Assembly (NCBI GenBank): GCA_035504095.1
Contig: DATJSN010000040.1
Coordinates: forward strand, 1-47,118
DNA length: 47,118 nt
Direction of reading: 5' to 3'
Origin: Phycisphaerae bacterium
Lineage (GTDB): Bacteria > Planctomycetota > Phycisphaerae > WQYP01
The notes under the pieces: generated by a model
Seen by the model: only the letters and a program-made list of their open reading frames with translations
Told to the model about the DNA's origin: nothing
Database searches by the model: none
Translations under genes and position numbers: made by a program
Shown: one piece after another, positions 1 through 42,186 of the stretch
Position numbering within the stretch: the stretch's first letter is position 1
Layout: each line of letters opens with the position of its first letter

Positions 1-3000
1 TGGTGTTGCCGACGTCCCCTTTAAAGTCGGTCTCGCCGGTGGTGTCCACGGTGAGGCTGTCGGTCCCGGCGGCGTTGCCGTCATTAATGGTTGAATCAAA
101 GGTGATGTTGCCGGCGTCGATATCCTTAAGCGTGGTGGTCGTGGTGATTAACACGGCGCCGCCATACGTCTGGCCGCCGGAGTCGGTAGTCACGCTGGCG
201 CCATTGATGTCAGTGGTGCCGCCGGAATAGCCCATGCCGGTATCAACGTCGAGATATTGGAGCGCGGTAGTGTTGCCGACCGAACCTTTAAAGTCGGTCA
301 GGCCGGTGGTGTCCACCGTCAGGCCGTCGGTCCCGGCGGCATTGCCGTCATTAATCGTTGAATCAAAGGTGATGTCGCCGCCATCGGCGTCCGTCAGCGT
401 GGTTGTCGCCGTGATTAACACGGCGCCGCCATACGTCTGGCCACCGGAGTCGGTAGTTATGCCGGCGCCGTTAATGTCGCTGCTGTTGTCCACGTCGAGG
501 TATTTAAGCGCCGTGGTGCCACCGACATCTCCGTCAAAAGACGTCAGGCCGGTGGTATCCACCGTCAGGCCGTCGGTCCCGGCGGCATTGCCGTCATTAA
601 TCATTGAATCAAAGGTGATATTGCCGGCGTCGGTGTCCTTAAGCGTGGTCGTCGCCGTGATTAACACCGCCCCGCCATATGTCTGGCCGCCGGCATCCGT
701 GGTTATGCCGGCGCCGTTAATGTCGCTGCCGCCGTCGACGTCCAGGTATTGCAGCGCCGCAGTGTTGCCCACCGATCCTTTAAAATCGGTCAGGCCGGTG
801 GTGTCCACCGTCAGGCCATCCGTCCCTGCGGCATTGCCGTCATTAATCGTTGAATCAAAGGTGATGTCGCCGGCGTCGGTGTCCTTAAGCGTCGTGGTCG
901 TGGTGATTAATACCGCGCCGCCATACGTCTGGCCGCCGGAGTCGGTAGTTATGCCGGCCCCGTTAATGTCGCTGCTGTTGCCCACGTCGAGGTATTTAAG
1001 CGCCGCGGTGTTGCCCACCGATCCTTTAAAGTCCGTCAGGCCGGTGGTGTCCACCGTCAGACCATCGGTCCCGGCGGCGTTGCCGTCATTAATGGTTGAA
1101 TCAAAGGTGATGTCGCCGCCATCAGTGTCCGTCAGGGTGGTCGTCGCCGTGATTAACACCGCGCCGCCATACGTCTGGCCACCGGAGTCGGTAGTTGCGC
1201 CAGCGCCATTGATGTCAGTGGTGCCGCCGGAATAGCCCATGCCGGTATCGACATCGAGGTATTGCAGCGCCGCAGAATTGCCGACCGATCCTTTAAAGTC
1301 GGTCAGGCCGGTCGTGTCCACCGTCAGGCCGTCCGTCCCCGCGGCATTGCCATCATTAATCGTTGAATCAAAGGTGATGTTGCCGGCGTCGGTGTCCTTA
1401 AGTGTGGTCGTGGTTGTGATTAACACCGCGCCGCCATACGTCTGGCCGCCCACATCCGTGGTTACGCTGGCGCCATTGATGTCGATGTCGCTGCCGAGAT
1501 ACACGCCGGTGTTGTCCACGTCGAGGTATTGCAGCGCCGCAGAATTGCCGACCGATCCTTTAAAGTCGGTCAGGCCGGTGGTATCCACCGTCAGGCCATC
1601 CGTTCCGGCGGCATTGCCGTCATTAATCGTTGCATCAAAGGTGATGTTGCCGCCATCAGTGTCCGTCAGCGTGGTCGTCGCCGTGATTAACACCGCCCCG
1701 CCATATGTCTGGCCACCGGAGTCCGTGGTTATGCCGGCCCCGTTAATGTCGCTGCTGTTGTCCACGTCGAGGTATTCGAGTGCCGTGGTGCCGCCCACCG
1801 ATCCTTTAAAATCGGTCAGGCCGGTGGTATCCACCGTCAGGCCATCCGTCCCTGCGGCATTGCCGTCATTAATCGTTGAATCAAAGGTGATGTCGCCGCC
1901 ATCGGTGTCCGTCAGCGTGGTCGTCGCCGTGATTAACACCGCGCTGCCATACGTCTGGCCGCCGGAGTCCGTGGTTACGCCGGCTCCGTTAATGTCGCTG
2001 CTGCTGTCGACTTCGAGATATTGCAGCGCCGTAGTGTTGCCGACATCTCCGTCAAAAGACGTCACGCCGGTGGTATCCACCGTCAGGCCGTCCGTTCCGG
2101 CGGCATTGCCGTCATTAATCGTTGAATCAAAGGTAATATCGCCGCCATTGGTGTCCGTCAGTGTGGTCGTCGCCGTGATTAACACCGCGCCGCCATACGT
2201 CTGGCCGCCGGCATCGGTAGTCACGCCGGCGCCATTGATGTCAGTGGTGCCGCCGGAATAGCCCGTGCCGGTATCGACATCGAGGTATTCGAGCGCCGCA
2301 GTGTTGCCCACCGAACCTTTAAAGTCGGTCAGACCGGTGGTGTCCACCGTCAGGCCGTCGGTCCCGGCGGCGTTGCCGTCATTAATCGTTGAATCAAAGG
2401 TGATATTGCCGGCATCCGTGTCCGCCAGCGTGGTGGGCGCCGTGATTAACACCGCACCGCCATACGTCTGGCCGCCGGAGTCCGTGGTTACGCCGGCGCC
2501 GTTAATATCGCTGCTGTTGTCGACGTCGAGATCTTGCAGCGCCGTAGTGCCGCCGACAGCACCGTCAAAAGACGTCAGGCCGGTGGTATCCACCGTCAGG
2601 CCATCGGTCCCGGCGGCATTGCCGTCATTAATGGTTGAATCAAAGGTGATATTGCCGGCATCCGTGTCCGCCAGCGTGGTGGTCGCCGTGATTAACACCG
2701 CGCCGCCATAAATCTGGCCGCCCTCATCCGTGGTTATGCCGGCCCCGTTAATGTCGCTGTCGCCGTCTACGTCGAGATATTGCAGCGCCGTAGTGCCGCC
2801 GACATCTCCGTCAAAAGACGTCAGGCCGGTGGTGTTCACCGTCAGGCCATCAGTCCCGGCGGTGTTGCCGTCGTTGATCGTCGAATCAAAGGTGATGTTG
2901 CCAGCGTCGGTGTCCGTCAGCGTGGTCGTCGCCGTGATTAACACCGCGCCGCCATACGTCTGGCCGCCGGAGTCCGTGGTTATGCTGGCGCCGTTAATAT

Positions 3001-3470
3001 CGCTGCCGCCGTCGACATCGAGATATTGCAGCGCAACAGTGTTGCCGACATCTCCGTCAAAAGACGTCAGGCCGGTGGTGTCCACCGTCAGGCCATCTGT
3101 CCCGGCGGCATTGCCGTCATTAATCGTTGAATCAAAGGTGATAGCGCCGCCATCGGTGTCCGCCAGCGTGGTCGTCGCCGTGATTAACACCGCGCCGCCA
3201 TAAATCTGGCCGCCCACATCCGTGGTCACGCCGGCGCCATTGATGTCGATGTCGCTGCCGAGATATACGCCGGTGTTGTCCACGTCAAGATATTGCAGCG
3301 CCGCAGAATTGCCGACTGATCCTTTAAAGTCGGTCAGGCCGGTGGTGTCCACCGTCAGGCCGTCTGTCCCTGCGGCATTGCCGTCGTCGATGGTCGATGT
3401 AAAGATAATATCCGCGCCATCGGTATCCAACAGCGAGATGGTCCCACCGATCAGCACCGGTCCGGTATAA
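1..3470. repeat. Tandem array of about 13 or more near-identical coding repeats of about 250 bp (about 83 aa, ...INDGNAAGTDGLTVDTTGLTDFKGSVGN...) inside TpsA. A longer super-period of about 1005-1026 bp is also visible, and the array continues off the left edge.
   Basis: The string gccgtcattaat(c/g)gttgaatcaaaggtgat recurs at about 85, 340, 590, 838, 1085, 1350, 1620, 1870, 2115, 2380, 2625, 2870 and 3120. ccgccggaatagcccatgccggtatc recurs at about 221, 1226 and 2252. Confidence 0.85.
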
Positions 3471-6439
3471 GTTTGTCCACCGCCGGAAGTATTCACGTCG
3501 CCGTTGAGCCTGATTTGGCCGACGGTGGTACTCAAGTCAACGTAACCGGCGGCCGAAGAGGCACCGATGGCGGAAATCGCGCCGATTTGCACGTTCCCCG
3601 CAGCGGAAACATTAACAAATCCCGCATTCCCATTCCCCTCATAACCATATCCGCCGTTGGTGTTGATGGCGCCGGAGACCGTAACCGTCCCAGCGGCACC
3701 AGTGGAGTTCAGCTTAACGTTGCCGCCGCCGCCGCCATAAGCGCCGCTGCCAAGATAACCTGCGCTGCCGCCAACTGCCGATATGTTGCCGGTTGATATG
3801 TCGCCAGCGGTTGTTATATGAATGTAATTTGCAGATCCGGCGGTGCCGTAATACGCATCGCCGCCCGATGCTGTTAAATCTCCGGTCGATACCGCGCCGC
3901 CGGCCGCGATTTTGATGTATCCAGCAGAACCACCTCCCTCATAACCATAACCGCCGCTGGTGTTGATGGTGCCTGTATTAATCGTCCCGGTCGCACCGGT
4001 GGAGCTCAATGTTACATTGCCGCCGCCGCCGCTATAAGCGCCGCCGCCATAAGCACCGCCGCTGCCACCAACTGCCGAGATGTCGCCGGTTGATATGTCG
4101 CCAGCGGTTGTAATCTGAATGAAACTTGCAGATCCGGCATTGCCGTAATACGAGCCACCGCCCGATGCTGTTAAATCTCCGGTCGATACCGTGCCACCGG
4201 CAGTGCTTTTGATATAACCCGCACTTCCGCCTCCCTCATAACCATATCCGCCGCTGGTGTTGATGGCGCCGGTGACGGTAACGGTACCGGCCACACCAGT
4301 GGAGTTCAGCGTAACGTTGTCGCCGCCGCCGCCATAAGCACCGCTGCCGAGATAACCTGCGCTGCCGCCGACCGCCGATATATCGCCGGTTGATATATCG
4401 CCAGCGGTTGTAATCTGAATGTAATTTGCAGATCCGGCATTGCCGTAATACGAGCCGCCGCCCGATGCTGTGAAATCTCCGGTCGATACCGTGCCGCTGG
4501 CAGTGATTTTGATGTAACCCGCAGACCCGCCTCCCTCATAACCATAACCGCCGCTGGTATTGATGGCGCCGGTGTTGATCGTACCGGCAGCGCCGCTGCT
4601 GGTCAGCGTTATATTTCCGCCCCCGCCGCCGTTACCAGCATTTGACGCGCCCCCAATCGCTGAAATATTGCCGACCGTAATGTTCCCCAAAGCCGTCAGA
4701 CCCACATTTCCCGCTGCATAGCCGCCTGTTGGACCATTGGTCGTGATGCCGTAATAACCACCGCCCCCATTGCTCGCGAACATGATATCCCCGCCGGTGG
4801 AATCAATCATGCAATTTCCGCCATTGGTAGTGATGTCATCATTAACTGTAATGTTGCTTCCGGCCATCAGGCTTACATTCAGTCCACCTGTTCCTGTCGG
4901 GGCTATCGTCACGCCGCTTTCGATAATAATTTCTCCCGCCGCATCAAGCGTCAGGGTCACCGTACTGCTCAGACTTGGATCGATATCCACTCCCGTTAAC
5001 ATCGTAATATTCCCGCTCTCGCCTCCCGAATTGCCGGTGGTAATCATTATGCTGGTCCCGCCGGTTAGATCGGTGTTGATTTGCCCGTCGGTGATTGTTG
5101 CGCCGCTGACGTTGGCATTGTAAGTTCCCGAACCCCCTCCTCCGCTAAAACCGCTGTAACTCGCCGCTCCCGAAGTGATCGTCACGTTAAACGGATCCAG
5201 TAACCATACCCCCGCCGCCCCACCCCCGGCTCCATCCGCCGTCACTGTAGCGCCGGGACTGACGTACAGCAGTTCGCCCGACGAATCGATTAGCCCGCCG
5301 TTCCCCTTAACCGTGGCGCTGGCGTTGAGCACTGCCGAGGCGCCGATGTAATCAAATTCACTTGCATCGGTATATCCGGTTGATGAAGCCGGGTCCGCCG
5401 TTACGCCGATGAGTATGCTGCCTCCGCCCATCGTCCCGCTCGCATCGATTGTTACCGGCGCATCCACAAAGGCGCCGCTGGCGTTTTTATTCACGCCAAC
5501 GCCGATATTCCCGCCGTTGATACTAACGGTTCCACCCGTGTTGCCGGGTCCTTGGTTGGCCGCGTTAAGTTTGCCGGAAACAAGTACTGTGGAAGCATCT
5601 CCATTTGCCGCAATGTTAATGTTGCTTGCCTGGACGGTTCCCGAAGTGTTGATGGCCAGCGAATACAGGTCACCGGCGCGAATGGTCACGTCGCCGCCTT
5701 GAGCGTTAATCGTACCGCTGTTATTTACTCCGGTCGTTTCCGACTTGCCGCCGGCAACTTGTACGACGATTGGGGACCCAAGCTTACTGACATAAACGTT
5801 GTTGCCGGCAGCCATCACCACCATGCCCTCGGGCGTAGCAATAGTGCCGCTATTGACGATATTCTGTCCTACAAAACTCACTGCACCGGCGTGAATCGTG
5901 CCGGCATTGATTACGGCTCCGGTTGCATTGGTGAAATTGTTGGTTCCGGAGAGAAAGTCGGCGTCAGACATGTGCGCTGCCGCGGCGTAAATCTGGCCTA
6001 CATTGACCACCGCGTCCCCACCGAATGTGACGCCCGCGGGATTCACAAAATAAACTATTCCATTGGCATTCAGATTGCCGTCAATCAGCGTAGGTGTTGG
6101 GCCGATGATTTTATTTAGAACAGTAGCGGAAGCCGATGGCTGAACGAAATCCACCGTATTTCCTTTGGGAATGTTGAATTGTTGATAATCGATGATTGAA
6201 TGATTTGCGGCGGTGATGGTCATCAGGTCACCAACCTGATCGAAACTTGCCTCGCCGGCAGCAACATGATCAACTACGATTGGTCCATTGGCATGGGCGT
6301 GGTCCAGGTTTGCCGAAAATGCCGCCACGGCGGCTGCAGCTGACAGTAAGATTGCTCTTTTGCGCAGCAGTCCAAACTTCGGAAGGAAGCTGGCTCGCGA
6401 TCTGTGTTTCGCGATCTTCGTTGTCTTAAGCGGCAACAT
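1..6439 (-). CDS. Giant two-partner-secretion exoprotein (TpsA-like adhesin/toxin), C-terminus beyond the left window edge. It has a signal peptide, an N-terminal TPS (haemagglutination-activity) domain, then a repeat-rich beta-helical passenger.
   Basis: I translated the minus frame by hand at three places and it is open: 6439 downward reads MLPLKTTKIAKHRSRASFLPKFGLLRKRAILLSAAAAVAAFSANLDHAHA (signal peptide). That runs into ...NIPKGNTVDFVQPSASATVLNKIIGPTPTLIDGNLNANGIVYFVNPAGVTFGG..., which fits the TPS-domain NPNGI / secretion-domain pattern. Around 3481-3610 and around 1-290 it is also open, reading VGNTTALQYLDVDTGMGYSGGTTDINGASVTTDSGGQTYGGAVLITTTTTLKD...INDGNAAGTD..., which resembles autotransporter-associated beta-strand repeats. 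The start codon is 27 nt downstream of, and in frame with, the TpsB stop at 6467-6469. The ORF track omits this gene because its stop lies outside the window. The plus-strand ORFs 3..230, 234..1235, 1239..2261, 2265..2711, 2730..3203, 3222..3470 and 3473..3796 are P/S/V-rich antisense readings of it. Confidence 0.75.
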   Translation of the reverse strand, partial: MLPLKTTKIAKHRSRASFLPKFGLLRKRAILLSAAAAVAAFSANLDHAHANGPIVVDHVAAGEASFDQVGDLMTITAANHSIIDYQQFNIPKGNTVDFVQPSASATVLNKIIGPTPTLIDGNLNANGIVYFVNPAGVTFGGDAVVNVGQIYAAAAHMSDADFLSGTNNFTNATGAVINAGTIHAGAVSFVGQNIVNSGTIATPEGMVVMAAGNNVYVSKLGSPIVVQVAGGKSETTGVNNSGTINAQGGDVTIRAGDLYSLAINTSGTVQASNINIAANGDASTVLVSGKLNAANQGPGNTGGTVSINGGNIGVGVNKNASGAFVDAPVTIDASGTMGGGSILIGVTADPASSTGYTDASEFDYIGASAVLNASATVKGNGGLIDSSGELLYVSPGATVTADGAGGGAAGVWLLDPFNVTITSGAASYSGFSGGGGSGTYNANVSGATITDGQINTDLTGGTSIMITTGNSGGESGNITMLTGVDIDPSLSSTVTLTLDAAGEIIIESGVTIAPTGTGGLNVSLMAGSNITVNDDITTNGGNCMIDSTGGDIMFASNGGGGYYGITTNGPTGGYAAGNVGLTALGNITVGNISAIGGASNAGNGGGGGNITLTSSGAAGTINTGAINTSGGYGYEGGGSAGYIKITASGTVSTGDFTASGGGSYYGNAGSANYIQITTAGDISTGDISAVGGSAGYLGSGAYGGGGDNVTLNSTGVAGTVTVTGAINTSGGYGYEGGGSAGYIKSTAGGTVSTGDLTASGGGSYYGNAGSASFIQITTAGDISTGDISAVGGSGGAYGGGAYSGGGGNVTLSSTGATGTINTGTINTSGGYGYEGGGSAGYIKIAAGGAVSTGDLTASGGDAYYGTAGSANYIHITTAGDISTGNISAVGGSAGYLGSGAYGGGGGNVKLNSTGAAGTVTVSGAINTNGGYGYEGNGNAGFVNVSAAGNVQIGAISAIGASSAAGYVDLSTTVGQIRLNGDVNTSGGGQTYTGPVLIGGTISLLDTDGADIIFTSTIDDGNAAGTDGLTVDTTGLTDFKGSVGNSAALQYLDVDNTGVYLGSDIDINGAGVTTDVGGQIYGGAVLITATTTLADTDGGAITFDSTINDGNAAGTDGLTVDTTGLTSFDGDVGNTVALQYLDVDGGSDINGASITTDSGGQTYGGAVLITATTTLTDTDAGNITFDSTINDGNTAGTDGLTVNTTGLTSFDGDVGGTTALQYLDVDGDSDINGAGITTDEGGQIYGGAVLITATTTLADTDAGNITFDSTINDGNAAGTDGLTVDTTGLTSFDGAVGGTTALQDLDVDNSSDINGAGVTTDSGGQTYGGAVLITAPTTLADTDAGNITFDSTINDGNAAGTDGLTVDTTGLTDFKGSVGNTAALEYLDVDTGTGYSGGTTDINGAGVTTDAGGQTYGGAVLITATTTLTDTNGGDITFDSTINDGNAAGTDGLTVDTTGVTSFDGDVGNTTALQYLEVDSSSDINGAGVTTDSGGQTYGSAVLITATTTLTDTDGGDITFDSTINDGNAAGTDGLTVDTTGLTDFKGSVGGTTALEYLDVDNSSDINGAGITTDSGGQTYGGAVLITATTTLTDTDGGNITFDATINDGNAAGTDGLTVDTTGLTDFKGSVGNSAALQYLDVDNTGVYLGSDIDINGASVTTDVGGQTYGGAVLITTTTTLKDTDAGNITFDSTINDGNAAGTDGLTVDTTGLTDFKGSVGNSAALQYLDVDTGMGYSGGTTDINGAGATTDSGGQTYGGAVLITATTTLTDTDGGDITFDSTINDGNAAGTDGLTVDTTGLTDFKGSVGNTAALKYLDVGNSSDINGAGITTDSGGQTYGGAVLITTTTTLKDTDAGDITFDSTINDGNAAGTDGLTVDTTGLTDFKGSVGNTAALQYLDVDGGSDINGAGITTDAGGQTYGGAVLITATTTLKDTDAGNITFDSMINDGNAAGTDGLTVDTTGLTSFDGDVGGTTALKYLDVDNSSDINGAGITTDSGGQTYGGAVLITATTTLTDADGGDITFDSTINDGNAAGTDGLTVDTTGLTDFKGSVGNTTALQYLDVDTGMGYSGGTTDINGASVTTDSGGQTYGGAVLITTTTTLKDIDAGNITFDSTINDGNAAGTDSLTVDTTGETDFKGDVGNT
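3520..4700. repeat. Second tandem array inside TpsA: four copies of a Gly-rich coding unit of about 300 bp (...GGYGYEGGGSAGYIKITASGTVSTGD...).
   Basis: ccctcataaccata(t/a)ccgccg(c/t)tggt(g/a)ttgatgg recurs at about 3640, 3935, 4235 and 4535, with long near-identical flanks. Confidence 0.8.
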
Positions 6440-6466
6440 AATGCCCTTCTCCGGAAATACCGTCCG

Positions 6467-8503
6467 TTAGTAGCTAATTGAAAACAAAAAATTAAACTGG
6501 CTCGATCCAGCGGATACGCCTCCCTGGCCAGTTGCTTCCGGACTCACGGGTGTCAAGGCAATGCCCCAGTCCACCAGGGCCGAAACGTTTTTCCATAGCG
6601 TGACCTGCGCCCCCACACCTGTGCTGATTAACGTCGCCCCCGCTTCATATGACTGTGGATGGCTTTGTCCCACTTCTCCTGCATCCACAAATGTGCTCAA
6701 TACCAGATCCCAATCCGGCTGGCCGTATGGTGTTGGTGGCGCGGTATAAAACGGTTGGCCCAGAAAAGTTGTTGGGTTTGGATTGACCGGAAACAGCCGT
6801 GGAATGTGCAGGTTGTATTGAATTGTGCCCCAAATGGCGCTATCACCTGCGACAATCGTCTGTGGATAACCGCGGACCGTAAATAGTCCGCCTATGACCG
6901 CCTCTTGCTGCGGAACCAGACGCTGGTCGAAAGCCTCCTGGCCGTTGATGCGGAACACAATTTCATTGGCCATTGTGCTGGTTCCGCTTGCGAAACTCTG
7001 CGGGAATAGCAAAGGTTCCAGATAGAAGGAAACTTCGTAATTACCTTGCAGAATTGCCCACGTCGGATCAGTGTTCAACCTCCCCAGGTTATTGAGTTGC
7101 GTTGAGCTTGAGGAAGTATATTGACCGAGCACCGTCAAATTTCCGTTTTGTTGAGATGTGTTGCCAACACGAGTCATCCTCAGCGTAAGATAAGGGTAAA
7201 GAAAGTCAGCTTCGCCGGTCTGTTGGAAAGCTACGTCATCGACATAAGAATACTCGTATTCTGCGCCCAGTACGCCGTAAAAAAATAGTTTATTAAACTG
7301 AGCAAGGGTCAGAATGACTTCAGCACCTCCTGAAGCGAGTTCGCCGTTTAAATTTGAATTGCCCAAACCGATATTGGACGCAGTGTATTGTTCATAGCCG
7401 CCATACATACGGCCTTGCAGTTGATTGATGCCAATAATTGGAAATTGGTATGAGGCACTAATATCATTCATTTTGGAAAATCCGGCAGTGGCATAACTAA
7501 GGTTAAGAATATCGTCGTGGCCGGTCAGTTCAGTATCGTTAAACCCGAACTGTTCCATCCATGGATTCGTTTGTTTTGTGCCGGTGTTGGACAACTGCGC
7601 GTAAGCCACCCATGGTTTTGATTGATTAACGAGGTAATCCAATGTCACTGAATCGACCTGATTGCCGGGCGAGATCGCGATGCTAACCCGCCGACTCGTC
7701 TGCTGATTCAGGAGCGATATGTAATCATCAAGAGCGTCTTCTTGAAGGAGATCTTTCGTTTGCATTTGGTTGGTACTGCTCGCCGGTTGGATTGGCGAAT
7801 GTTGCCGGATGAAGGCGGCCTGTGGATTGTTAATCACCTGCGTTCCTGACATCCCCGGTCCAGACGAAATCGTTCGAACGTCGGTCACAATTGCGGTGTG
7901 AATCACCAGATGTAAGAGCGTATCACCAGCAGGGCGCAAATCGCGTGGCCCACTAAAGTCTTTTGTTGAGACTTGAACATACAATCCGATGATGTGCCTT
8001 TGATGTATTGCCGCGACAATCTGAAGTTCGATGCTTTGCAACGCGCTGGAATAAAAACGATGCGGTATGTTTTGCGCGTTGAACTGCGCCAGCGTCATGG
8101 TACTCGATGGATATATGATTCCACGACTTTGAGCAGATGTTTTGACCGCGACATATCCGTCACGGCTCAACGCCAATTGGATCGGCAGGTCCATCAGTGT
8201 GGTTAGTGCTGGAAGAGCCTCGCGATCGTGCGCGTAACTTAACACGAATTGGCTGATGCTGTAGGCACGGCCGTCGTCCGGCTCCTGGGCGGGTGGAAGA
8301 ACATTGGAGGATGGAACATGCGATGGTGGTGTGCTTTGGGCAGTGGTGGAACCAATTGCCATTGCGGGTCCGCTGAAGGCGTTAAGAATGCCCGCCAGGG
8401 CTGCTGTCAGGAGAAACCCGGCGCCCCATCGTTTATATTTTTTGTAAATTGGGCTAGTCAAGACGCTTCGTCGCGGCCATTTTAACAAACGCTGTGCGTC
8501 CAT
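6467..8503 (-). CDS. TpsB outer-membrane transporter of the two-partner secretion system (ShlB/FhaC/HecB family, POTRA plus beta-barrel).
   Basis: 678-aa ORF with a signal peptide (GFLLTAALAGILNAFSGPAMA) and a long region rich in beta-strand-forming residues. It ends in an aromatic residue (…FSISY), as Omp85/TpsB barrels typically do. It is immediately upstream of, and co-oriented with, the TPS-domain exoprotein, which is the classic tpsB-tpsA order. Confidence 0.7.
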   Translation of the reverse strand: MDAQRLLKWPRRSVLTSPIYKKYKRWGAGFLLTAALAGILNAFSGPAMAIGSTTAQSTPPSHVPSSNVLPPAQEPDDGRAYSISQFVLSYAHDREALPALTTLMDLPIQLALSRDGYVAVKTSAQSRGIIYPSSTMTLAQFNAQNIPHRFYSSALQSIELQIVAAIHQRHIIGLYVQVSTKDFSGPRDLRPAGDTLLHLVIHTAIVTDVRTISSGPGMSGTQVINNPQAAFIRQHSPIQPASSTNQMQTKDLLQEDALDDYISLLNQQTSRRVSIAISPGNQVDSVTLDYLVNQSKPWVAYAQLSNTGTKQTNPWMEQFGFNDTELTGHDDILNLSYATAGFSKMNDISASYQFPIIGINQLQGRMYGGYEQYTASNIGLGNSNLNGELASGGAEVILTLAQFNKLFFYGVLGAEYEYSYVDDVAFQQTGEADFLYPYLTLRMTRVGNTSQQNGNLTVLGQYTSSSSTQLNNLGRLNTDPTWAILQGNYEVSFYLEPLLFPQSFASGTSTMANEIVFRINGQEAFDQRLVPQQEAVIGGLFTVRGYPQTIVAGDSAIWGTIQYNLHIPRLFPVNPNPTTFLGQPFYTAPPTPYGQPDWDLVLSTFVDAGEVGQSHPQSYEAGATLISTGVGAQVTLWKNVSALVDWGIALTPVSPEATGQGGVSAGSSQFNFLFSISY

Positions 8504-8780
8504 GAGGCTACCTTTGTTTCTCCGACCCTTCTACCACGCTCTAATCGCACCACACAAATACTCCGGCATACTCGCGAAATCGCTAACATTGATTTGTCAA
8601 ACTTTTTTGGAGCGGCGCGCACTAGGCCAGAAGTACTCTTAAGACATTCCCTGTCACTTATCTATTAATAGAGGCGATGTTACATTTGGTCTGATTGATA
8701 TGTCAAGTATTAATAGCATATTTGTCGTAGTTTGTGAAAATTTCAGTGCTCGTTCGACATAACCGCGTGGGCTTGTATAT

Positions 8781-9800
8781 CTAGCTAAGGAACGAAGGAG
8801 CCGGCTTATCACCGGCTGAACGACATACAGTGAGATAATCACGCACTTGCTGTAGAAATTGCGGATTGAGTTCAAACGGAATGTCGCTTACCAGGGGCAT
8901 TCTCGCCAATCCGGCACGCAAACAGAACAAGGCCGCTGGTTTCGGTTCGCCAATAATCAAGTCAACAAAATCATTTCGATTATCCGTTTTGTCCTTCGGC
9001 GACCAATATTCTATCGCGGAAACCGGATAGGTTGCGCCAAGCATTGAATGAATTAAGGAACACCACATACGGGCGGAAAACCACTTTTGCTGATCGTTCA
9101 ACGGCAGTCGTAATGATTCAGTGGGGGCATCAGCCGGGTCGTGCGATATTGCGTCAATCGCCCTTTGAGTCGCGTAGAAAATGCGTGAAGCAGCAACGGG
9201 TTCCTCATTGGCAAATAGCATTGCTACCTGATCGCCGGTCATGGAGTGGTTCACTTTTGTGTTGACCGGTGTCAGTTGTTTGGCAGCAATAGTTTGAATC
9301 TTTTGTTGTGTTGCGCTTACTTTTGTCCGCACTTCATCAGCGGAATCGGTGTTTTGCAGCGAATCACGCAATTCCAGAAGCAACGGGCAGATTTGCCGCT
9401 CTACTTCGGCTGGACTGAAACCACGTGACTGCAGGGCCACCACCAGCGGATAAAGACTCCTGCCCTTGCCGTCCGTGGAAGCGGAAAGTGTTGCCCAAAA
9501 ATAATGGCTATCACGACTGTATACTAAGAGATGATTGAATTCCGGGAGCCGTTGATCGACGGACAGTTGTGCCCAGGTACCTGAATCAATATTTCTTCCA
9601 ATTCCCTCCACGTATATGATGCGTTTGAATTCCTGCATGTCACGGCTTTGTTCCCCAATATCGTCCATGTGATCATCCCAGGCGGGATGCTTGCCGAACA
9701 CGCTTAAGGCCAGCAAGGGCTCTGTGGACATAGCGGAGAAAATTCGAGATTTAAACTTCTGGAGGAAATCGCCCAATTGATCACCTTTTTCGACTAACAA
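8781..9800 (-). CDS. tagF: TagF-like type VI secretion-associated protein (DUF2094 / ImpM family).
   Basis: The N-terminal FGKHPAWDDHMDD resembles the TagF FYGKLPxRGDF motif, and ...DGKGRSLYPLVVAL resembles the conserved GRxFPL block. The gene is translationally coupled just downstream of tssM, as in tssL-tssM-tagF operons. Confidence 0.5.
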   Translation of the reverse strand: MLVEKGDQLGDFLQKFKSRIFSAMSTEPLLALSVFGKHPAWDDHMDDIGEQSRDMQEFKRIIYVEGIGRNIDSGTWAQLSVDQRLPEFNHLLVYSRDSHYFWATLSASTDGKGRSLYPLVVALQSRGFSPAEVERQICPLLLELRDSLQNTDSADEVRTKVSATQQKIQTIAAKQLTPVNTKVNHSMTGDQVAMLFANEEPVAASRIFYATQRAIDAISHDPADAPTESLRLPLNDQQKWFSARMWCSLIHSMLGATYPVSAIEYWSPKDKTDNRNDFVDLIIGEPKPAALFCLRAGLARMPLVSDIPFELNPQFLQQVRDYLTVCRSAGDKPAPSFLS

Positions 9801-9812
9801 CTCGGTGGAATT

Positions 9813-12800
9813 CTATTCCTTTTCATGCGGCCAGTCAGATAGTTGTGGCAGGGACCTGGAGAAAATCATCTCAAGGTGCGTCATATGGTCCTTATGAAAT
9901 TGATCTTGTATATGAATAGTAATCGTCCATGTCATTCCATCTTTGGTTGTCCCGTTATTCAGGACCAGCAACTTTAAAGCCGCCCAGGGACCCCGGAAAT
10001 CCATGGTCACCGGAATGGCTCCGGCCACCGTCGGGTCTGTTTCAAAAAAATTCAGCTTGAGCGACGCCTGGGGTTGGTCCGGTATCGTGAGTTGACCCAG
10101 ACTGTCATCAGAGAGGTTGTCAAAATTTGCTATTCCCATGAGTTTGGCTTTCTCTTGCTCCGCACCCATGTCTGTAACGGTCATATAGGGCCAGATCGCT
10201 GATACCGTGTTGTTTGGATCTTGTTTGATATCCTTTGTAATAAACAGCTGACAGGTTAGCGCAGGCTCTGCTCCATTGCCAATGATAGCATCCAGTATCT
10301 TATAAATAGCGGCCACATTCGCGCCTGTTAAGTCAAATTTCTGGTAAGAGATATTCCCCTGCAGAACACTCCACCAATGGTTGAAATCGTCGTTATTGGT
10401 ATCCGCTACTTCTAAAGAAGACGTCGATGAGTCGAGCAGGTTATGAAAGTCCGGCGATAGCGTATTCAAATCGTAGAGCGACCATTCATTCTGCGGCGAA
10501 TCGGCGGAAGCGGGGATATATAAAGGAAAAGCCGGATTTTCCCATATCTTCGTCAGAACAACATCAGCCCGCTGTTGGCTTTCTTTGGCCAGGGTTCTTA
10601 AACCGCTCAGTGTTAACTGGCAGATATAGTTCGAGGCAAAATTCGGCGTTGTTGATGATGGTACGAAGATATAGTCGTTATATACTTTATCCGGCAATTC
10701 AGTTAACAGCGTTTGTCTGGCAACGGCGTAATCGTTCGCCAGTTGCGTCCATTGATTCAGCTTGTTCTGCACGTCATTTGCAAAGGACGTCTCGTTGAGG
10801 AGATTAAGACCCATTTTTATGTTGTTTTTAGCGTCGCTGATCCTGTTACTTAGTGAGTCTGGAATCGCGACCGCTTCCAGTGAACCGTTTACTTGCGCGC
10901 CCAGACTTTCCAGAGCGGCCAAAAGATGGCCTTCCTGTGGTAACTGGCTCAGATAGTTCGTCCATTTTCCGTCAGGTACATCGATCTTCAAACCGTCATC
11001 TAAAGTTGACAGCCAATAGACAAAGTAGGCTTGCCGGTAAGCGTCAAAGGCCGAGTTGGCTTGTTGATACTTAACGGAAAGATTGCTGGCATCAGCAATT
11101 GAATTGTAATTGTTTATTCCGCTGACGGCGTCAGAAAGCAGTTTTCCACACTGATACCATCCATCAAGCAGTTTCGCCGCTGGCAAGGGATCAAACGCGG
11201 GATTGAATGTTCCACCGGCATCGGAGGTGAATGGTATTGAAGGCTTGACTGGCGTTGTTGATCCGTTGACAGACGCCTGTTGTACTAATGATTCAATGGA
11301 TGCCGCATCGGCTGGAGCCTGACGAATGGCCAGGCCGATGGCCTGTCCGTATCGATATGACTCAATCAATGTCAGCGCTTTGAGTGCCGCTTGAATTGCT
11401 TCACTATTGTATGAAGCGTTAGCTTCCGAACCGGCGGCTTCAATCGTGTTCTTGGTCTGCTCAATCAGCGTTTCGGTTTGGGGCAGTTGGTCGGTGCTGA
11501 ATTCCTCCAGCCATCCTTTGATTTGCATAAGCGATGTCGGATCGGCGGGAGTATTGACCAAATTCGCAAGCGACTGATACATCGCCTGCCGCTGCCATAT
11601 CTCCAGGTCGGTCCCCGCCGGGGAAAGAAATTTTTGATCCAAATCAGCAAATTGCGGGTCGGCTTCTGTAGCGCTATTGGTTATTGCTGTTTGCAGGCTA
11701 TTCCACGATTGCTGGAGTGTTCCCGCCTGTGGCATCGAATTATCCATTGATTTAAACCAACCTGCGGCCTGTTCCAGGCGGTCCCACACCTGCAGTCGAT
11801 TTTGATTTAAAGCCGAGGCATAGTTCAGGTAAGAAATGGTAAGAGTGCCGAATTTTCCCAGCGCCGGCAAATTAGCACGAACTTGTGCGGCTGAAGTGGC
11901 CAATTCTTGCAGCAGCACCACAAGTTTGTTGTAAGACGCAGAGTCGGCGCCGTCGGTTGGAGTATATGCCGCGGCGACATTCATCATCTGACCCTCTGTC
12001 GCCTCATAATTTTCCAAAGCTGTCTCAAGATTCATGAGATGCTGTATATTCTTGTTTCCCGCCTTAACTATATTGTTTTCCCCATTAATGACGCTCTGAA
12101 TACCATTGGCAATGGAGTCCGCCGGATCCGCGGATTGGATTATGCTTTGCAGAGCCGACGACCACTGTTGATCCGGTGTATAAAGCGACCGAATGATTTT
12201 CTGGTTCAGAACGCTTTGATACTGCTTGTAGCTTTGGTAATCAGTCGGAGATAAAACGTAAGCGACCAGATAATCGATATTTGCCCGACTGTTCTCAGAC
12301 GCGTATGAGGTATCTTGAGGGTAATAAGCCAGATGCGCCAAATCAATTAATTCGCACAGGGCATCGGTACGCACCTTAAGATCCATTGGCGTCGCGGATT
12401 GTTGATCCAATGGTTCAGCGGAAAGCTTTGATTCACACGCCTGAATGATGGGCAACAGGGCTTCATCATTATAAATTTTCATGAATGCCTGGTGTTGTTG
12501 TTGATTGATCTTGTCGCCAAAGGCCAGAGAAATGGGCCGAAATATCCAGGGGATTTGAATATCTTTGCGGACAAGCTCGAATCCATCATTGTAAAAATCG
12601 GCCAGACGGCTTTCATTTGCTTCAATGGTATGCTTGCCGTTGTACCCGTAATTGGAGCCGTTATCGGAATCGTGAACGATCATTGCCATGTAATCGGGAT
12701 TATTCGACGTGTAAATCTGCGCGGCGACCTGCCAATATTGACGCGGATATCCCACGCTGTTTGTCAATTCGAAAAAAGCGTAAAAAGTGGATGCGAGTAG

Positions 12801-14230: not shown

Positions 14231-14962
14231 TTATTTTTGCAAAATTTTATCCAAAGCATTATTTAACTGGCCGATACTTTGGTGGAAAAGATAAAAATTC
14301 GCGATCAACAGTGTCACAAAGCACACCAACAACACCACGGCAATGCCGAAAAGTTTTACCCCGGGCGGTTCGATAAGATTAGCGGTGTTAACGTGCTCAT
14401 AATTTTCAGGACAAATTTTTCGCATATCCGTGTCCTTCGCACCGGCATAAAGCCGCGCACGAACCTCTTTGATCTTTTTCTTCAAATACTCGGGTTGGTC
14501 TCTGTAGGAACCGGTAAAGCCTAAACCCAAACAGGCAGAGAATATTTTTAATCGCCATATAGCCGCCGGCGATTTGTCCTTCAGTGTTTCGTCCAACAAG
14601 ACGAAAAATTTCTCATTGCCGTTCGGTTCGTTGTAATCGGATGCGATTTCTTTAAACTTTTTGGAAATCGTATAGCCGCCTTCTTTTATGGTAAAGTCGG
14701 CGAAAAAGATCAGGGGCTGTTCAATTTTTTCAAATTCTACGGCTAATTCATCAGAGGCAGTTGCCCCGTTTTTCATCTTTGCTAACAGTTCATTGATGTC
14801 AGCCCGCACTTGATCGGCGTCTATTTGTGCGCCATTACGTGCTGAGCGGTTCAGGCGGCAAAAATATTGAAAGAATGGTTCTGTAAGGTCCAGAAGCGTC
14901 AGTCGCGCTTCGCTGGCGTGCAGAAAATGAAAAAATGGATCGTTCAGATCTACAAGCGTCAT
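14231..14962 (-). CDS. tssL: TssL / DotU-family protein (T6SS membrane-complex subunit); cytoplasmic domain plus a single C-terminal TM anchor.
   Basis: 243 aa, a size typical for DotU. There is a single C-terminal TM helix (LFGIAVVLLVCFVTLLIANFYLF). It lies immediately upstream of tssM on the same strand. My sequence-level recognition here is moderate and rests on architecture and position. Confidence 0.55.
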   Translation of the reverse strand: MTLVDLNDPFFHFLHASEARLTLLDLTEPFFQYFCRLNRSARNGAQIDADQVRADINELLAKMKNGATASDELAVEFEKIEQPLIFFADFTIKEGGYTISKKFKEIASDYNEPNGNEKFFVLLDETLKDKSPAAIWRLKIFSACLGLGFTGSYRDQPEYLKKKIKEVRARLYAGAKDTDMRKICPENYEHVNTANLIEPPGVKLFGIAVVLLVCFVTLLIANFYLFHQSIGQLNNALDKILQK

Positions 14963-15025
14963 AAACTATCCTGTTCCGTTAATGAGTGCGTGACGTTGGT
15001 CCATCGACGCGCAGTCAGGCATTGT

Positions 15026-15991
15026 TTAGATTACCCTATCCACGAATTCACGAACAATCTCCCTGATCTCATGATCCACGTCCGCTTCATCAAGATTTTC
15101 TGCAGCCAGTTCACAGTATTTTTCCCAACACAAAATTTTTATAGATGCCAGAAACTTTTTGTGTTCGGTTCGAACAGCGGCTTCAATTTCTGCCGGTGCG
15201 AATTTCTTTCCGTAACGAGATGAAAATTGGCGCCCCGTTTCCCCCACGGAAGATAGCAACGCCGCATTAAGTTTTCGAAGCTTTTCCAATTCGTTTGACA
15301 CCTGCTCGCGGGATACTTCCGGATCGTTGGCCATGAAACGGCTTATAAGACGTTGCAGCGGCGCTCCACGATGCATTTTCGATCCCGGTGCGATGATCTT
15401 CCACATGTTCCACGCAATTTGATCGATGCTCAACGTTAAGTCGGAAAGTATGAGGGCCAGTTCCAGCACATGGCCCGCATGGGGATGTAAACCATCTTCC
15501 AATTGGAGACGGTTTCGAAATTTAGACAGTGGTTCGCCAGGCCAGTCCGGACCGGATCGTGGAATAAGGCCGGCATCAGCCAATCGTTCAATTAGAGTTT
15601 CTTTTAGCGCCTGCGGCAATTTGGGGGCCAGCTTGCAAAGTTGTTGCACCAGAAAGAATGGGTCCTGCTGATCCATCGCGCCGGCATTGGAATTCGCCTC
15701 TGTTTGGCTTTGCACGGATGCGTTAACCTGTTGTCGGGTGATATCATTGCCATCCCAACGCGGAAATTGTTCAGCAAGGGCGGAGCAAAATTCCGGTCTT
15801 TGGGTTGGAGCAATTACCGCCATCGACCGCTTGATTTCATTGGAAATAAATTCCTGTCGAGCCTGAAGCGGTTCCTGCATCATGTCCGCTTGAAGGGCTC
15901 GGATTCGGTTGGCAAGCCGCGCTGCCTCAGGCAAAATGTCTGAATCCATCTCTGTCATATGATCTCGTTGACGTAATACTGGATCGCGCAA
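15026..15991 (-). CDS. Hypothetical all-alpha soluble protein (321 aa), first gene of the tssL-tssM-tagF operon, occupying the position tssK usually holds. No recognisable family.
   Basis: Long ORF with a 63-bp gap to tssL on the same strand. No signal peptide and no TM helix. Rich in helix-forming residues. Confidence 0.55.
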   Translation of the reverse strand: MRDPVLRQRDHMTEMDSDILPEAARLANRIRALQADMMQEPLQARQEFISNEIKRSMAVIAPTQRPEFCSALAEQFPRWDGNDITRQQVNASVQSQTEANSNAGAMDQQDPFFLVQQLCKLAPKLPQALKETLIERLADAGLIPRSGPDWPGEPLSKFRNRLQLEDGLHPHAGHVLELALILSDLTLSIDQIAWNMWKIIAPGSKMHRGAPLQRLISRFMANDPEVSREQVSNELEKLRKLNAALLSSVGETGRQFSSRYGKKFAPAEIEAAVRTEHKKFLASIKILCWEKYCELAAENLDEADVDHEIREIVREFVDRVI

Positions 15992-16290: not shown

Positions 16291-16902
16291 ATGGTCGATA
16301 AAACCCGCGTTTTGTTTATAGCAGCAGATCCAGTGGACGTTGATTCATCGAAATTGAACGAAGAAATTCAGGAAGTAGAGCAACATATTCGAACGCCTGG
16401 TTTTCTCGAAGCTTTTGATTTAACTTCTAAATGGGCTCTTCGCTCTCAGGACCTGATCCAGGCCTTCCAGGATGTTCGTCCGGATATTGTTCACATCAGC
16501 GGCCATCGCTGCCGGATGTCTGAGTTTGTACTTGAGGACGCTCGTGGTATAGCCAAACCGGTTTCAGAATCCGCCCTGACCGAGCTATTCAGTCATGCGA
16601 AAGATAATGCCCGGCTGGTATTGCTTAATATGTGTCATTCGGGGCACCTGGCAAAGGCCATCAGCAACGTAATTGACTGTGCGATTGGAATAAACCAGCG
16701 TATTGACGACAAAGAAGCGGTTGTCTTCTCATCTCAATTTTATGGAGCACTGGCCTTGGGTCAGTCCGTCAGGAATTCATTTGAGCAGGGGCGAACCGCA
16801 CTCATGGTGGATGGAATTCCCGAAGAAAAGACCCCAATGCTTTTCATTCGTCCGGGCGCTGATGCCCTTCAGATTTCTTTTAGCAACCATAAGTCGAATT
16901 AG
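16291..16902 (+). CDS. Minimal CHAT-like / caspase-fold cysteine protease domain protein (203 aa).
   Basis: His and Cys motifs in caspase-hemoglobinase-fold order and spacing: ...DIVHISGHR... (His, about residue 70) and ...LVLLNMCHSGH... (Cys, about residue 115). These resemble the HxxGHG ... C(x)SG motifs of CHAT/C14 peptidases. There are no additional domains. Confidence 0.55.
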   Translation: MVDKTRVLFIAADPVDVDSSKLNEEIQEVEQHIRTPGFLEAFDLTSKWALRSQDLIQAFQDVRPDIVHISGHRCRMSEFVLEDARGIAKPVSESALTELFSHAKDNARLVLLNMCHSGHLAKAISNVIDCAIGINQRIDDKEAVVFSSQFYGALALGQSVRNSFEQGRTALMVDGIPEEKTPMLFIRPGADALQISFSNHKSN

Positions 16903-24537: not shown

Positions 24538-25743
24538 TTACAGCGTGCCAAACTTGTAGATTGTCTGCTGGAAATAGGATGGCCCGGGATTGAGAACTGT
24601 GGGAGGAAAATTAGAATGATTGGGCGCATCCGGATAACCGCAGGCTTCAAGTGTGATGCCGCCGAAGCACGGATACGATCCGCCGATGCCGGTCAGCGAA
24701 CCATCGAGAAGATTACCGGTATAAATCTGAATGGCGGGCTGGGTGGTCCAGCATTCCAGCGAACGGCCGCTGATCGGCTCTTCCAAACGTGCCGCGAGCA
24801 CCAGCGCTTGTCCGGCAGTATTCAGGCACCATGTGTAGTCGTAACCATAAGGCAAAAGATCGCCGTTGACCTTGCCTGTGTCCGGTACAGGCGTCAGGCG
24901 CAAACCGATGAGTTGCGGCGACTGGAAATCCAGCGCTGTACCGCGCACCGAAACAATGTCGCCGGTGGGAATTAACTGATCGCTTACCGGCAGATAATTT
25001 TCGCTGAAAATCTGCAATCCGTGATTCAACACTGTGGAACCCGGACCGTTGAGATTGAAATAGGTGTGATTGGCCGGATTCACAATGGTCGGAGCATCGG
25101 TGGTCATACGGTAATTGATGTGAATGCTGTTGTCGTCGTTGAGATAGTACAGCGTCTCCGCCTCCAGGTCGCCGGGGAAGCCGTTTTCACCCGCGGGAGA
25201 AAAATAATTGAATCGCACGCCGGGCGATCCGCCGACAGTAACCGCTGTGGGCGTCCAGATTTTGCTGTCCCATGCATTCGGCCCGCCATTTAAAGCGTTC
25301 ACACCATCATTAAGAGGGATGTGATAAGTGGCGCCGTTTAGCGTGAACGTTCCGCCGGCGATGCGGCCCGCATAACGACCCAGGGTGGCGCCAAAACCGG
25401 CGTCGGCGGCCGCGATATAACTGGGTAAATCGTTAAAGCCAAGGGCGACATCGCCGACATTGCCGTCGCGATCCAGGGAAAGAATTCTCTGCACCCTGGC
25501 GCCATAGCTCAGAAGTTGCACGATCATCCCGTTGGCGTTGGCCAGTGTGTATTGTTCAACCTTGGCGCCATCCTGCATGGCCCCGAAGTCTGCCTTATAG
25601 ACTCCCTTTTTCGGAGGTTGCGGATTGTCCTGAGCTGATGCGCTGCGACTGGAACCCGCAAAAGCCAGACCCGCGGCAACACCGGTTGCGAGAAATCCAC
25701 GCCGTGATATTGAGCTTAATTTTGCGCCGCTGGTATTCGTCAT
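24538..25743 (-). CDS. galM: Aldose 1-epimerase (galactose mutarotase), Tat-exported.
   Basis: Twin-arginine signal SRRGFLATGVAAGLAFAGSSRSASA. Conserved GATLGRYAGRIAGG…YHIPLNDG…NALNGG mutarotase blocks. Confidence 0.8.
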   Translation of the reverse strand: MTNTSGAKLSSISRRGFLATGVAAGLAFAGSSRSASAQDNPQPPKKGVYKADFGAMQDGAKVEQYTLANANGMIVQLLSYGARVQRILSLDRDGNVGDVALGFNDLPSYIAAADAGFGATLGRYAGRIAGGTFTLNGATYHIPLNDGVNALNGGPNAWDSKIWTPTAVTVGGSPGVRFNYFSPAGENGFPGDLEAETLYYLNDDNSIHINYRMTTDAPTIVNPANHTYFNLNGPGSTVLNHGLQIFSENYLPVSDQLIPTGDIVSVRGTALDFQSPQLIGLRLTPVPDTGKVNGDLLPYGYDYTWCLNTAGQALVLAARLEEPISGRSLECWTTQPAIQIYTGNLLDGSLTGIGGSYPCFGGITLEACGYPDAPNHSNFPPTVLNPGPSYFQQTIYKFGTL

Positions 25744-25839
25744 GGCAGGAGCACCTCCGTCGGGCCTAATTTGGTGGCTGACTGCAAAATATATTCCATG
25801 CAGGCAAATTGAGCAAATTAATTCCGGCTAAACCGCTTG

Positions 25840-36334: not shown

Positions 36335-36757
36335 CTAAGATTGTTGTGCACGGGAGACGAAGGCCTCGGGAGTCAAAACGGGAATACCGGACTTGCTGAA
36401 GTGGCGCACGTCGCGTGTCACGATGATCCCGACCCCGGCCCGTAAGGCGCTGTGATATTGAACGGCGTCTTCGAAATCGCGCAAGGTTGAAACAATGGCA
36501 TCATCAATTACCGGGCCATCGAGCGGGATAACATGGAAAATATCCCGAAGCAGACGAATGCCGCGCATTGCCGCCGCATGATCCGCGGCGCGGTGCAGCA
36601 GATAATAAACTGTCACGATGCTGACGGCGGAAATTAATCCTTCGATTACACGGGTTTCGGCAAGCGTCCACACCGCGGCTGAAGCCGCGTAATATGGCTC
36701 ACGGCGGGCCAATACATCAAGAAGCACATTAATGTCCACCAAGACCCGCTGCTTCAC
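36335..36757 (-). CDS. vapC: PIN-domain toxin VapC.
   Basis: 140 aa, MKQRVLVDINVLLDVL… with PIN acidic residues D8 and …TRD…. Overlaps the upstream antitoxin gene by 4 bp. Confidence 0.7.
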   Translation of the reverse strand: MKQRVLVDINVLLDVLARREPYYAASAAVWTLAETRVIEGLISAVSIVTVYYLLHRAADHAAAMRGIRLLRDIFHVIPLDGPVIDDAIVSTLRDFEDAVQYHSALRAGVGIIVTRDVRHFSKSGIPVLTPEAFVSRAQQS

Positions 36758-36996
36758 CGGCCATGCCTCGCGGTTATGGCTTCCTGGATCAACTGACGAT
36801 CTGATTTGCCGTGCGGCAGGCGAATCAGACCACTGGCGCGCCGCGTCAAAGGCGTCAGCGACACCCGGCGGCCGCCGGATTCCATGGAGCGGACATATTG
36901 ACTGAACATATTGGAAACGCTTGTGCCGCGTTTTCGGGCCAGTTTTTTGGCCAGATCGATGATTTCGGAATCTGCGCTAAGGGTCAGCTTGGGCAT
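36754..36996 (-). CDS. vapB: Small antitoxin (VapB-like, probably ribbon-helix-helix).
   Basis: About 80 aa, MPKLTLSADSEIIDLAKKLARKRGTSVSNMFSQYV…. The ATG at 36996 has GGAG 5 nt upstream. The track's 117-aa version (start 37107) is an N-terminal over-extension. Confidence 0.5.
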   Translation of the reverse strand: MPKLTLSADSEIIDLAKKLARKRGTSVSNMFSQYVRSMESGGRRVSLTPLTRRASGLIRLPHGKSDRQLIQEAITARHGR

Positions 36997-40595: not shown

Positions 40596-40930
40596 TGGGT
40601 GCGGAAGTATGTACTTGAGTAAAGGCTGAACTATCCTACATGAAGGCGTAATATCTAACTTGTTGGTGGACGGCGTTTTTTAAATAAATACCAACAGATA
40701 AACACTATTAGTGATCCATACCAAAAAAAATCAATTACGTTACCGATAGTCATTGTGTCGGCAATCAATTCCGTTTACCCCGTTTGCGTATCTCCGGTTT
40801 GAGCCAGCCCGATTTAGGACGTTTCTTGGCCAGAGGGGATTATACCCAGCCAATTATTCGAATTAAAATAACGTCATCGGGACAGGTGAAAGTTGAGCAG
40901 GTGATCAGAAGAACAACGAAGAGAATAGCT

Positions 40931-42166: not shown

Positions 42167-42186
42167 CCGAATCAGCGATTTGATGC

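Follow-up and report, generated by a model that had tools for sequence, protein, structure and literature searches.

The question raised by the left end of contig DATJSN010000040.1, from a metagenome-assembled genome (MAG) of a Phycisphaerae bacterium, is what purpose is served by a secreted protein so large that its gene runs off the assembly. The window analysed here is this entire 47118-bp MAG contig, with position 1 being the contig end, and the locus in question is a two-partner secretion (TPS) operon, tpsBA, for an outer-membrane transporter (TpsB) and a giant exoprotein (TpsA). An initial annotation, made from the letters alone, took TpsA for a repeat-rich exoprotein of the filamentous haemagglutinin (FHA) type and expected a toxin or adhesin tip, along with any immunity gene, off the left edge. 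We report here that tpsB and tpsA form a type Vb (two-partner) secretion pair which, judged by synteny, is part of a type VI secretion system gene cluster (T6SS-i). In the explanation we favour, and which we hold to be probable while leaving ample room for doubt, TpsA is a T6SS-associated surface adhesin or tether. The features of the pair are as follows.

1..6439, minus strand: tpsA, 5' part only (2146 codons), a giant TPS-secreted exoprotein identified by its open frame and TPS domain; runs off the contig end
6290..6439, minus strand: extended Sec signal peptide of TpsA (amino acids 1-50), read from the translation, no predictor
5603..6211, minus strand: TPS secretion domain of TpsA (amino acids 77-279), matched by PF05860 and TIGR01901
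6440..6466, minus strand: tpsB-tpsA spacer of 27 nt, from frame translation
6467..8503, minus strand: tpsB, Omp85/TpsB-family outer-membrane transporter of 678 amino acids (NCBI: 664), from Pfam, AlphaFold2 (AF2) and Foldseek

Since the window is the entire contig, the TpsA C-terminus was never assembled, rather than cropped from the window, and the 3' end of tpsA is unreadable. Frame translation of the minus strand from 6598 to 1 gave a single stop codon, at 6467-6469, which is that of tpsB; from 6466 to base 1 the frame stays open, with the tpsA start ATG at 6439 and 2146 codons read before the left contig edge. No stop codon lies in this frame between 290 and 3480, the stretch where the initial annotation had said beforehand that its single-gene model might break, so the model survives. 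The same translation bears out that TpsB is followed after 27 nt, in frame, by TpsA, and the complaint that the open reading frame (ORF) track misrepresents the locus was justified: the plus-strand ORFs listed at 234..6118 are shadows of tpsA on its antisense strand. Two assemblies made independently from other samples match window positions 11432..2427 and 9644..3712 colinearly at 99.6-99.7% identity; hence neither the Gly-rich repeats nor the initial units of the main repeat array (see below) are an assembly artefact. Leftward extension through an exact-match look-up of TpsB led only to two shorter contigs, both of which also break inside repeats.

At its N-terminus, TpsA shows by eye a basic n-region, a hydrophobic AILLSAAAAVAAFSA and an AHA-N or FSA-N cleavage motif (cut before the N). 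While a full-length Pfam scan of this repetitive protein overlooked the TPS domain, scanning the first 491 amino acids alone recovered it (PF05860, E=1.7e-22, 81 bits, amino acids 77-279), and NCBIfam TIGR01901 matched full-length TpsA at E=1.2e-19. The PF05860 search had been proposed as a check by the initial annotation, whose clear TPS secretion domain is thus real, and its view of a giant repeat-rich FHA-type exoprotein in a type Vb operon, tpsB upstream of tpsA, is supported. Another Pfam match of TpsA, to TibC_1st (E=2e-10), was rejected as summed noise from repeats, no single stretch passing. Over its N-terminus TpsA is 52-54% identical to full-length orthologues of 2760-3119 amino acids. 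Its closest solved structures are EtpA (4.5e-29, amino acids 50-548), HMW1 (4e-17) and HxuA (6e-17), that is, two adhesins and a haemopexin binder, and not HpmA or ShlA. This speaks against a pore-forming cytolysin of the ShlA/ExlA/HpmA type, as do the size of the protein (>2146 amino acids; relatives up to 3300) and its beta-helical repeat arrays, which are typical of adhesins. Although TpsB does match a Pfam family named after ShlB, we regard a cytolysin as extremely unlikely.

The match in question (ShlB, PF03865) is only modestly above threshold (E=2.1e-7, 31.2 bits against a cut-off of 22.7), and by sequence alone TpsB has neither a Pfam POTRA nor a PDB match. The L6 motif 'VRGY' can be read from its sequence, as 'FTVRGYPQ'. 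An AF2 model built from 32 homologues (pLDDT 84.5) has POTRA-like alpha/beta units, at about amino acids 80-265 and read by eye as the POTRA region, followed by a beta-barrel, and Foldseek ranked FhaC (6e-22) and CdiB (1e-21) best, ahead of BamA and TamA. The predicted structure thus shows an FhaC/CdiB-like beta-barrel preceded by POTRA-like periplasmic units. We found 84 TpsB homologues, of which the named ones are labelled ShlB/FhaC/HecB family and come from Phycisphaerae. In the relatives considered throughout, i.e. loci encoding TpsB homologues plus loci found with the conserved TpsA C-terminus described below (each carrying an L number), tpsB and tpsA are arranged without exception as they are here, adjacent and co-oriented.

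What places this pair in a T6SS context is a set of membrane-complex genes, overlooked in the earlier reading, which share the strand of tpsB and immediately precede it.

8781..9800, minus strand: gene for a conserved cytoplasmic-looking protein (339-amino-acid ORF), 49% identical to a 297-amino-acid gene at the same position in L003
9813..14192, minus strand: tssM-like gene, 1459 amino acids, matched by PF14331 and TIGR03348 and 50% identical to L003 TssM
14231..14962, minus strand: tssL (DotU family), PF09850 at E=4e-18, 68% identical to L003 DotU
15026..15991, minus strand: conserved 321-amino-acid gene at the head of the cluster, 60% identical to a 310-amino-acid gene upstream of tssK in L003

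The TssM-like protein matches PF14331 (IcmF-related_N) at E=8.7e-54 and TIGR03348 at E=2e-82, the latter over model positions 31-466 of 1168 and below the curated (equivalog) cut-off; the IcmF model of type IVB secretion systems is far weaker (8e-9). Known TssM/IcmF models cover only its N-terminal third (~490 amino acids), and for the C-terminal ~970 amino acids, presumably periplasmic, none of Pfam, NCBIfam and PDB gave a match. The 339-amino-acid ORF, which probably starts at Met45 (about 295 amino acids), accompanies tssM, directly 3' of it, wherever tssM is linked to tpsB. Its counterpart in L003 is at 8797..9690, and in 13 metagenome loci a homologue separates tssM from tpsB. Searches of Pfam, NCBIfam and PDB gave no match to this protein. 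TagF, considered because of the position after tssM and an 'FGKHPAWDDH' motif, had no support from these databases and was not adopted. A metagenome scan with the 339-amino-acid family returned no matches, the back-translated patterns being too specific, and in L072 the homologue forms the N-terminal part of a 1257-amino-acid protein. As for the 321-amino-acid protein, a distant homologue from L090 scores borderline against PF20232 (T6SS_FHA_C; 23.4 bits, cut-off 23.7), and a relationship to the C-terminal domain of T6SS Fha/TagH proteins may be envisaged. Just upstream of the whole cluster, on the opposite strand, is a gene for a short CHAT-domain protein (16291..16902, plus strand, 203 amino acids), neighboured by genes for a metallophosphoesterase and a 665-amino-acid SPFH/Band-7 protein.

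Gene order in the relatives argues that this neighbourhood is no peculiarity of one genome. The closest full loci (L003/L004, TpsB 56-67% identical) read [310 amino acids]-TssK-DotU-TssM-[297 amino acids]-TpsB-TpsA-TssA, while L009, L010, L013 and L015 continue from TpsA into TssA-TssB-TssC-Hcp-ImpE/TagJ-TssE-TssF-TssG-ClpV. In L012 vgrG and a PAAR-like DUF4280 gene are inserted after tpsA. Far out in the family, in L090 and L072 (TpsB identity 33-38%), the order [321]-TssK-DotU-TssM-[339]-TpsB-TpsA-TssA-TssB-TssC is kept on both sides. Synteny thus assigns tpsBA to a T6SS-i cluster typical of Phycisphaerae, whose order would be [321]-(tssK)-tssL-tssM-[339]-tpsB-tpsA-(vgrG-PAAR)-tssA-tssB-tssC-hcp-tagJ-tssE-F-G-clpV. 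For two L090 proteins, relatives clustering at at least 90% identity are labelled Phycisphaerales. A further region of ~350 amino acids, not found in the window, recurs in distant versions of the cluster, often directly 5' of tpsB (L072 6855..9545; L090 145..819; just upstream of tpsB in L045, L050, L092, L083, L042, L087 and L043); its sole Pfam match, FGE-sulfatase (SUMF1-like), is sub-threshold (E=8.7e-4).

Could this neighbourhood be a historical accident in Phycisphaerae, with TpsA an ordinary stand-alone adhesin or biofilm exoprotein that is not functionally coupled to the T6SS? Roughly half or more of the family loci have no T6SS gene within 10 kb, which favours such a scenario, as does the separate promoter-like site 5' of tpsB (see below). 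Moreover, the NDH2-like gene that trails tpsA in stand-alone loci comes after tssA in L014, suggesting that T6SS genes were inserted around an older tpsBA locus. On the other hand, the tpsA-tssA junction persists where upstream flanks differ completely: in L005 and L023 unrelated housekeeping genes lie 5' of tpsB, yet tssA begins 70-90 nt after tpsA. (L025 and L026 also have unrelated housekeeping genes 5' of tpsB, and their contigs end inside tpsA.) The order from tssK to tssC preserved at 33-38% TpsB identity likewise disagrees with an accident. Scanning metagenomes with the TpsB alignment, we found T6SS genes near tpsBA in 15 of the 35 loci with at least 5 kb upstream, 13 with TssL, TssM and the 339-type gene upstream on the same strand and two with a divergently oriented T6SS core. 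This is far above chance, the expectation for a random gene being about 1% by a rough estimate rather than a computation. Our early idea that the linkage is limited to one narrow clade (the nearest outgroups being stand-alone) was overturned by this survey, in which T6SS-linked TpsBs are scattered over the whole TpsB tree. Taken together, we consider a purely accidental neighbourhood rather unlikely.

With the T6SS context in place, what lies at the unassembled end of TpsA? Complete relatives range from 1048 to 3307 amino acids and close with a module of ~230-260 amino acids, mostly helical and preceded by a Pro-rich stretch. Scanning with a hidden Markov model (HMM) of this module showed that nearly all complete family members carry it C-terminally, and an exhaustive library search recovered it from 151 clusters, where with few exceptions it forms the extreme C-terminus of a very large protein. 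(A homologue search with the C-terminal alignment gave only two fragments; it seems to skip proteins of more than about 1000 amino acids.) Between orthologue pairs the last 230 amino acids are 62-83% identical, the TPS domain 67-79% and the passenger middle 42-70%. By these figures the C-terminal module is as conserved as the TPS domain and more so than the passenger middle, the opposite of the CdiA-CT pattern. Judging from the orthologues, we infer that the unassembled C-terminus of the window TpsA is a Pro-rich linker plus this conserved, mostly helical module, with neither a toxin nor an immunity gene. One stand-alone TpsA (L020 12055..16845, 1596 amino acids) is without the module and ends in a low-complexity stretch rich in S/N/Q/G, after which comes a hydrophobic segment resembling a glycine zipper, GISFGLIGGMLGGPAGGMVGALGG.

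These data bear on contact-dependent inhibition (CDI) of the CdiA/BcpA type, in which a polymorphic toxin and its immunity gene would lie beyond the contig end, much as the initial annotation had anticipated. The giant size of TpsA, a TpsB model also resembling CdiB and the unseen C-terminus of the window tpsA are compatible with CDI, and an 'xLYND' motif inside the C-terminal module of some distant family members superficially recalls the (E/Q)LYN motif of Burkholderia. The pretoxin motif VENN, whose presence the initial annotation had suggested checking, is absent from all 33 family TpsA proteins (the window part and 32 relatives), and neither window TpsA nor the complete TpsAs of L072 and L090 have FHA-1/FHA-2 Pfam repeats; toxin Pfam domains are equally missing. 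After tpsA the relatives carry tssA (70-160 nt away), vgrG with a PAAR-like gene, or a housekeeping gene, and a small immunity-like ORF directly after tpsA was never seen in their loci. With no VENN, a C-terminus that is conserved rather than polymorphic and no small downstream gene, a CdiA-like reading is unsupported and, to our minds, has hardly any likelihood. The expected toxin tip and immunity gene are therefore not upheld, a conserved module ending the complete relatives instead.

The rest of what can be read of TpsA is dominated by two tandem repeat families.

2..3481, minus strand: 13 complete and one truncated tandem unit of 82 or 89 amino acids (amino acids 987-2146), from Tandem Repeats Finder (TRF), a unit list and an HMM
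3446..4642, minus strand: four Gly-rich tandem units of 99-100 amino acids (amino acids 600-998), the fourth degenerate, from TRF, unit delineation and an HMM

TRF gave a period of 246 nt with 12.4 copies for the main array, which is made up of 82-amino-acid units in eight copies, 89-amino-acid units in five and the truncated unit, and a period of 300 nt with 3.1 copies for the Gly-rich units. The initial annotation was right about two families and their copy numbers; its unit size of 83 amino acids gives way to 82/89, and its term 'near-identical' is slightly overstated for units that, unit 1 excluded, average 87% identity in DNA and 89% in protein. The PATR family (PF12951), also proposed as an HMM check, has no match, at E<=1 on a 264-amino-acid segment of the 82/89-amino-acid array or at E<=0.01 on the full-length protein. 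Since synonymous codon differences among main-array units outnumber non-synonymous ones (782 against 463) and no pair of units (again without unit 1) exceeds 92% DNA identity, selection is suggested to maintain the protein sequence of the repeat. An HMM of the 82/89-amino-acid unit finds only 5-6 weak, dispersed copies in orthologues and one of the Gly-rich unit finds four copies in window TpsA and none in orthologues, so that both arrays are lineage-specific amplifications. Such lineage-specific repeat amplification is usual for surface adhesins.

How, then, might TpsA work? From what is known of the TPS family, it would cross the inner membrane via Sec, be recognised through its TPS domain by the POTRA domains that TpsB extends into the periplasm and, once threaded out, fold into a very long beta-helical fibre, much of it presumably built from the lineage-specific tandem repeats. 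Made together with the T6SS, such an adhesin or tether could hold target cells or surfaces within firing range, in the way proposed for TasL, an adhesin encoded in a T6SS cluster of Vibrio fischeri (PMC9040878). More speculatively, if the FhaB prodomain is taken as a guide, the conserved module at the C-terminus may remain periplasmic and anchor the fibre or control its release. We count a passenger varying from the shortest to the longest of the complete relatives, and carrying lineage-specific repeats, as adhesin-like, given that TpsB, the TPS domain and the C-terminal module are all conserved; passengers of variable length with repeat expansions of their own are more in keeping with a surface adhesin than with a structural part of fixed form. 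The adhesin/tether role, albeit the most likely one by analogy, is inferred rather than shown.

Several observations weigh against a T6SS-associated adhesin. In many members of the family tpsBA stands alone, flanked by housekeeping genes, and the TpsA C-terminal module is present there too, so the family has no strict requirement for a neighbouring T6SS. The window has no tssK, either at its expected site (the 63-nt gap at 14962..15026) or elsewhere on the contig, while L003 (tssK region 2060..3421) and L090 both have it between the 310/321-amino-acid gene and tssL. Nor does the window contain any sheath, tube or baseplate gene (tssA-G, hcp, vgrG, clpV), just as it ends before the 3' end of tpsA; the remaining T6SS genes would lie beyond the contig end or elsewhere, and the T6SS of this genome may be split or degenerate. 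The C-terminal module is without a recognisable fold or family: it has no Pfam, PDB-sequence or PDB-profile match, and its AF2 model (mean pLDDT 45) did not have the quality needed for a fold search. A function as adhesin, retention at the surface and coupling to T6SS firing are read from gene context and analogy only. Finally, a 277-nt AT-rich gap precedes tpsB and contains a promoter-like site, and tpsB may be transcribed separately from the genes upstream of it.

8677..8706, minus strand: promoter-like site TTGACA-18-TAACAT, from a consensus scan only, which is not evidence of function

A different possibility altogether is that tpsBA is itself a structural or signalling part of the T6SS, with TpsB and the TpsA C-terminal module replacing the outer-membrane lipoprotein TssJ as partner of the divergent TssM periplasmic domain, or with the fibre acting as a contact sensor that triggers assembly. 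Of the cluster ORFs, from tssK through clpV, that were scanned in the window, L003, L009, L012, L072 and L090, none matched TssJ (T6SS-SciN), which agrees with this option. So do the unrecognisable ~970 amino acids of the TssM periplasmic region, the placement of tpsBA between the membrane-complex genes and tssA, and the high conservation of the TpsA C-terminal module. Against it, stand-alone tpsBA loci carry the same module, passenger length and repeats are too variable for a core component, and TssJ could be encoded elsewhere. Moreover, several known T6SSs lack TssJ. A structural or signalling part therefore strikes us as very improbable. A fuller version, in which tpsBA is integral to the Phycisphaerae T6SS, would have TpsB and a periplasm-facing TpsA C-terminal module serve as outer-membrane anchor or contact sensor, standing in for TssJ or TagQRST and working with the unusual ~970-amino-acid periplasmic domain of TssM. 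Taken as a whole it is improbable too; if true, it would amount to a hybrid type V / type VI apparatus. We keep to TpsA as a T6SS-associated adhesin or tether.

Elsewhere on the contig, a gene for a NotI-like restriction endonuclease (PF12183, 6e-63) adjoins one for a D12-class N6-adenine methyltransferase (42187..43936). This restriction-modification island was probably acquired horizontally because the patch around it (about 40000..44000) has 42-45% GC, below the 52-55% or so of its flanks. A PIN-domain gene (PF13470) that overlaps an upstream DUF6364 gene beside tgt (36335..37107) likely forms a toxin-antitoxin pair with it. There are two tandem aldose 1-epimerase paralogues of 401 and 406 amino acids (24538..27060) and a 603-amino-acid protein in which sigma-70 regions 2 and 4 of the extracytoplasmic function (ECF) type are fused to Sel1/tetratricopeptide (TPR) repeats (37826..39637). 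Rfam and tRNA scans of the window gave no matches.

Among known TPS systems, EtpA/EtpB of enterotoxigenic Escherichia coli (ETEC) and HMW1/HMW1B of Haemophilus resemble the window pair in their tpsB-first order, N-terminal TPS domain and long beta-helical repeat passenger. They differ in that no gene for a cognate glycosyltransferase (EtpC, HMW1C) is near the window tpsBA, that window TpsA is much larger, with its own 82/89-amino-acid and Gly-rich repeats and relatives that end in a conserved helical module, and that the operon lies within a T6SS cluster. In the case of FhaB/FhaC of Bordetella, the likeness lies in the TpsB model, which matches FhaC best, and in an equally giant TpsA. In addition, the Pro-rich stretch and conserved extreme C-terminus of the relatives recall the FhaB prodomain (proline-rich region plus extreme C-terminus, PRR plus ECT), which stays periplasmic and controls maturation. 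Unlike FhaB, however, the family shows no sequence similarity to that prodomain and no FHA-1/FHA-2 Pfam repeats, and periplasmic retention is proposed here by analogy only. With CdiA/CdiB it has the TPS architecture in common and CdiB is among the top structural matches to TpsB; the relatives, in contrast, are without a VENN/pretoxin motif, polymorphic C-terminus or immunity gene. Compared with the canonical T6SS-i (TssA-M), the clusters of the relatives hold TssA, B, C, Hcp, E, F, G, ClpV, VgrG, K, L, M and TagJ, and the window TssL and TssM. Where they depart from it is in the TPS pair between tssM and tssA, the lack of any TssJ seen, a TssM periplasmic region that is unrecognisable and, in the window, the missing tssK.

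On its own the TPS operon is ordinary and has already been annotated automatically, as ShlB/FhaC family and FHA N-terminal domain protein. What appears to be new is, firstly, a Phycisphaerae-wide TpsA family ending in a conserved non-toxin C-terminal module and, secondly, its repeated occurrence inside T6SS clusters, between tssM and tssA and with no TssJ seen. Full-text searches of the literature turned up no paper in which a TPS pair is described as a conserved component of T6SS clusters; the unrelated TasL of Vibrio fischeri comes closest in concept. TasL, a very large adhesin encoded in the T6SS2 cluster, was proposed to hold target cells for T6SS killing (PMC9040878). TasL is no TPS substrate but a putative lipoprotein, it has no homology to TpsA, and for TpsA the role is deduced from gene context only; yet both are very large surface proteins encoded in T6SS clusters (PMC9040878). 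If the coupling turned out to be functional, the TPS pair would provide a candidate for the missing outer-membrane partner of TssJ-less T6SSs and show how planctomycetes that are planktonic or attached to particles ensure the contact that a weapon of this kind requires.

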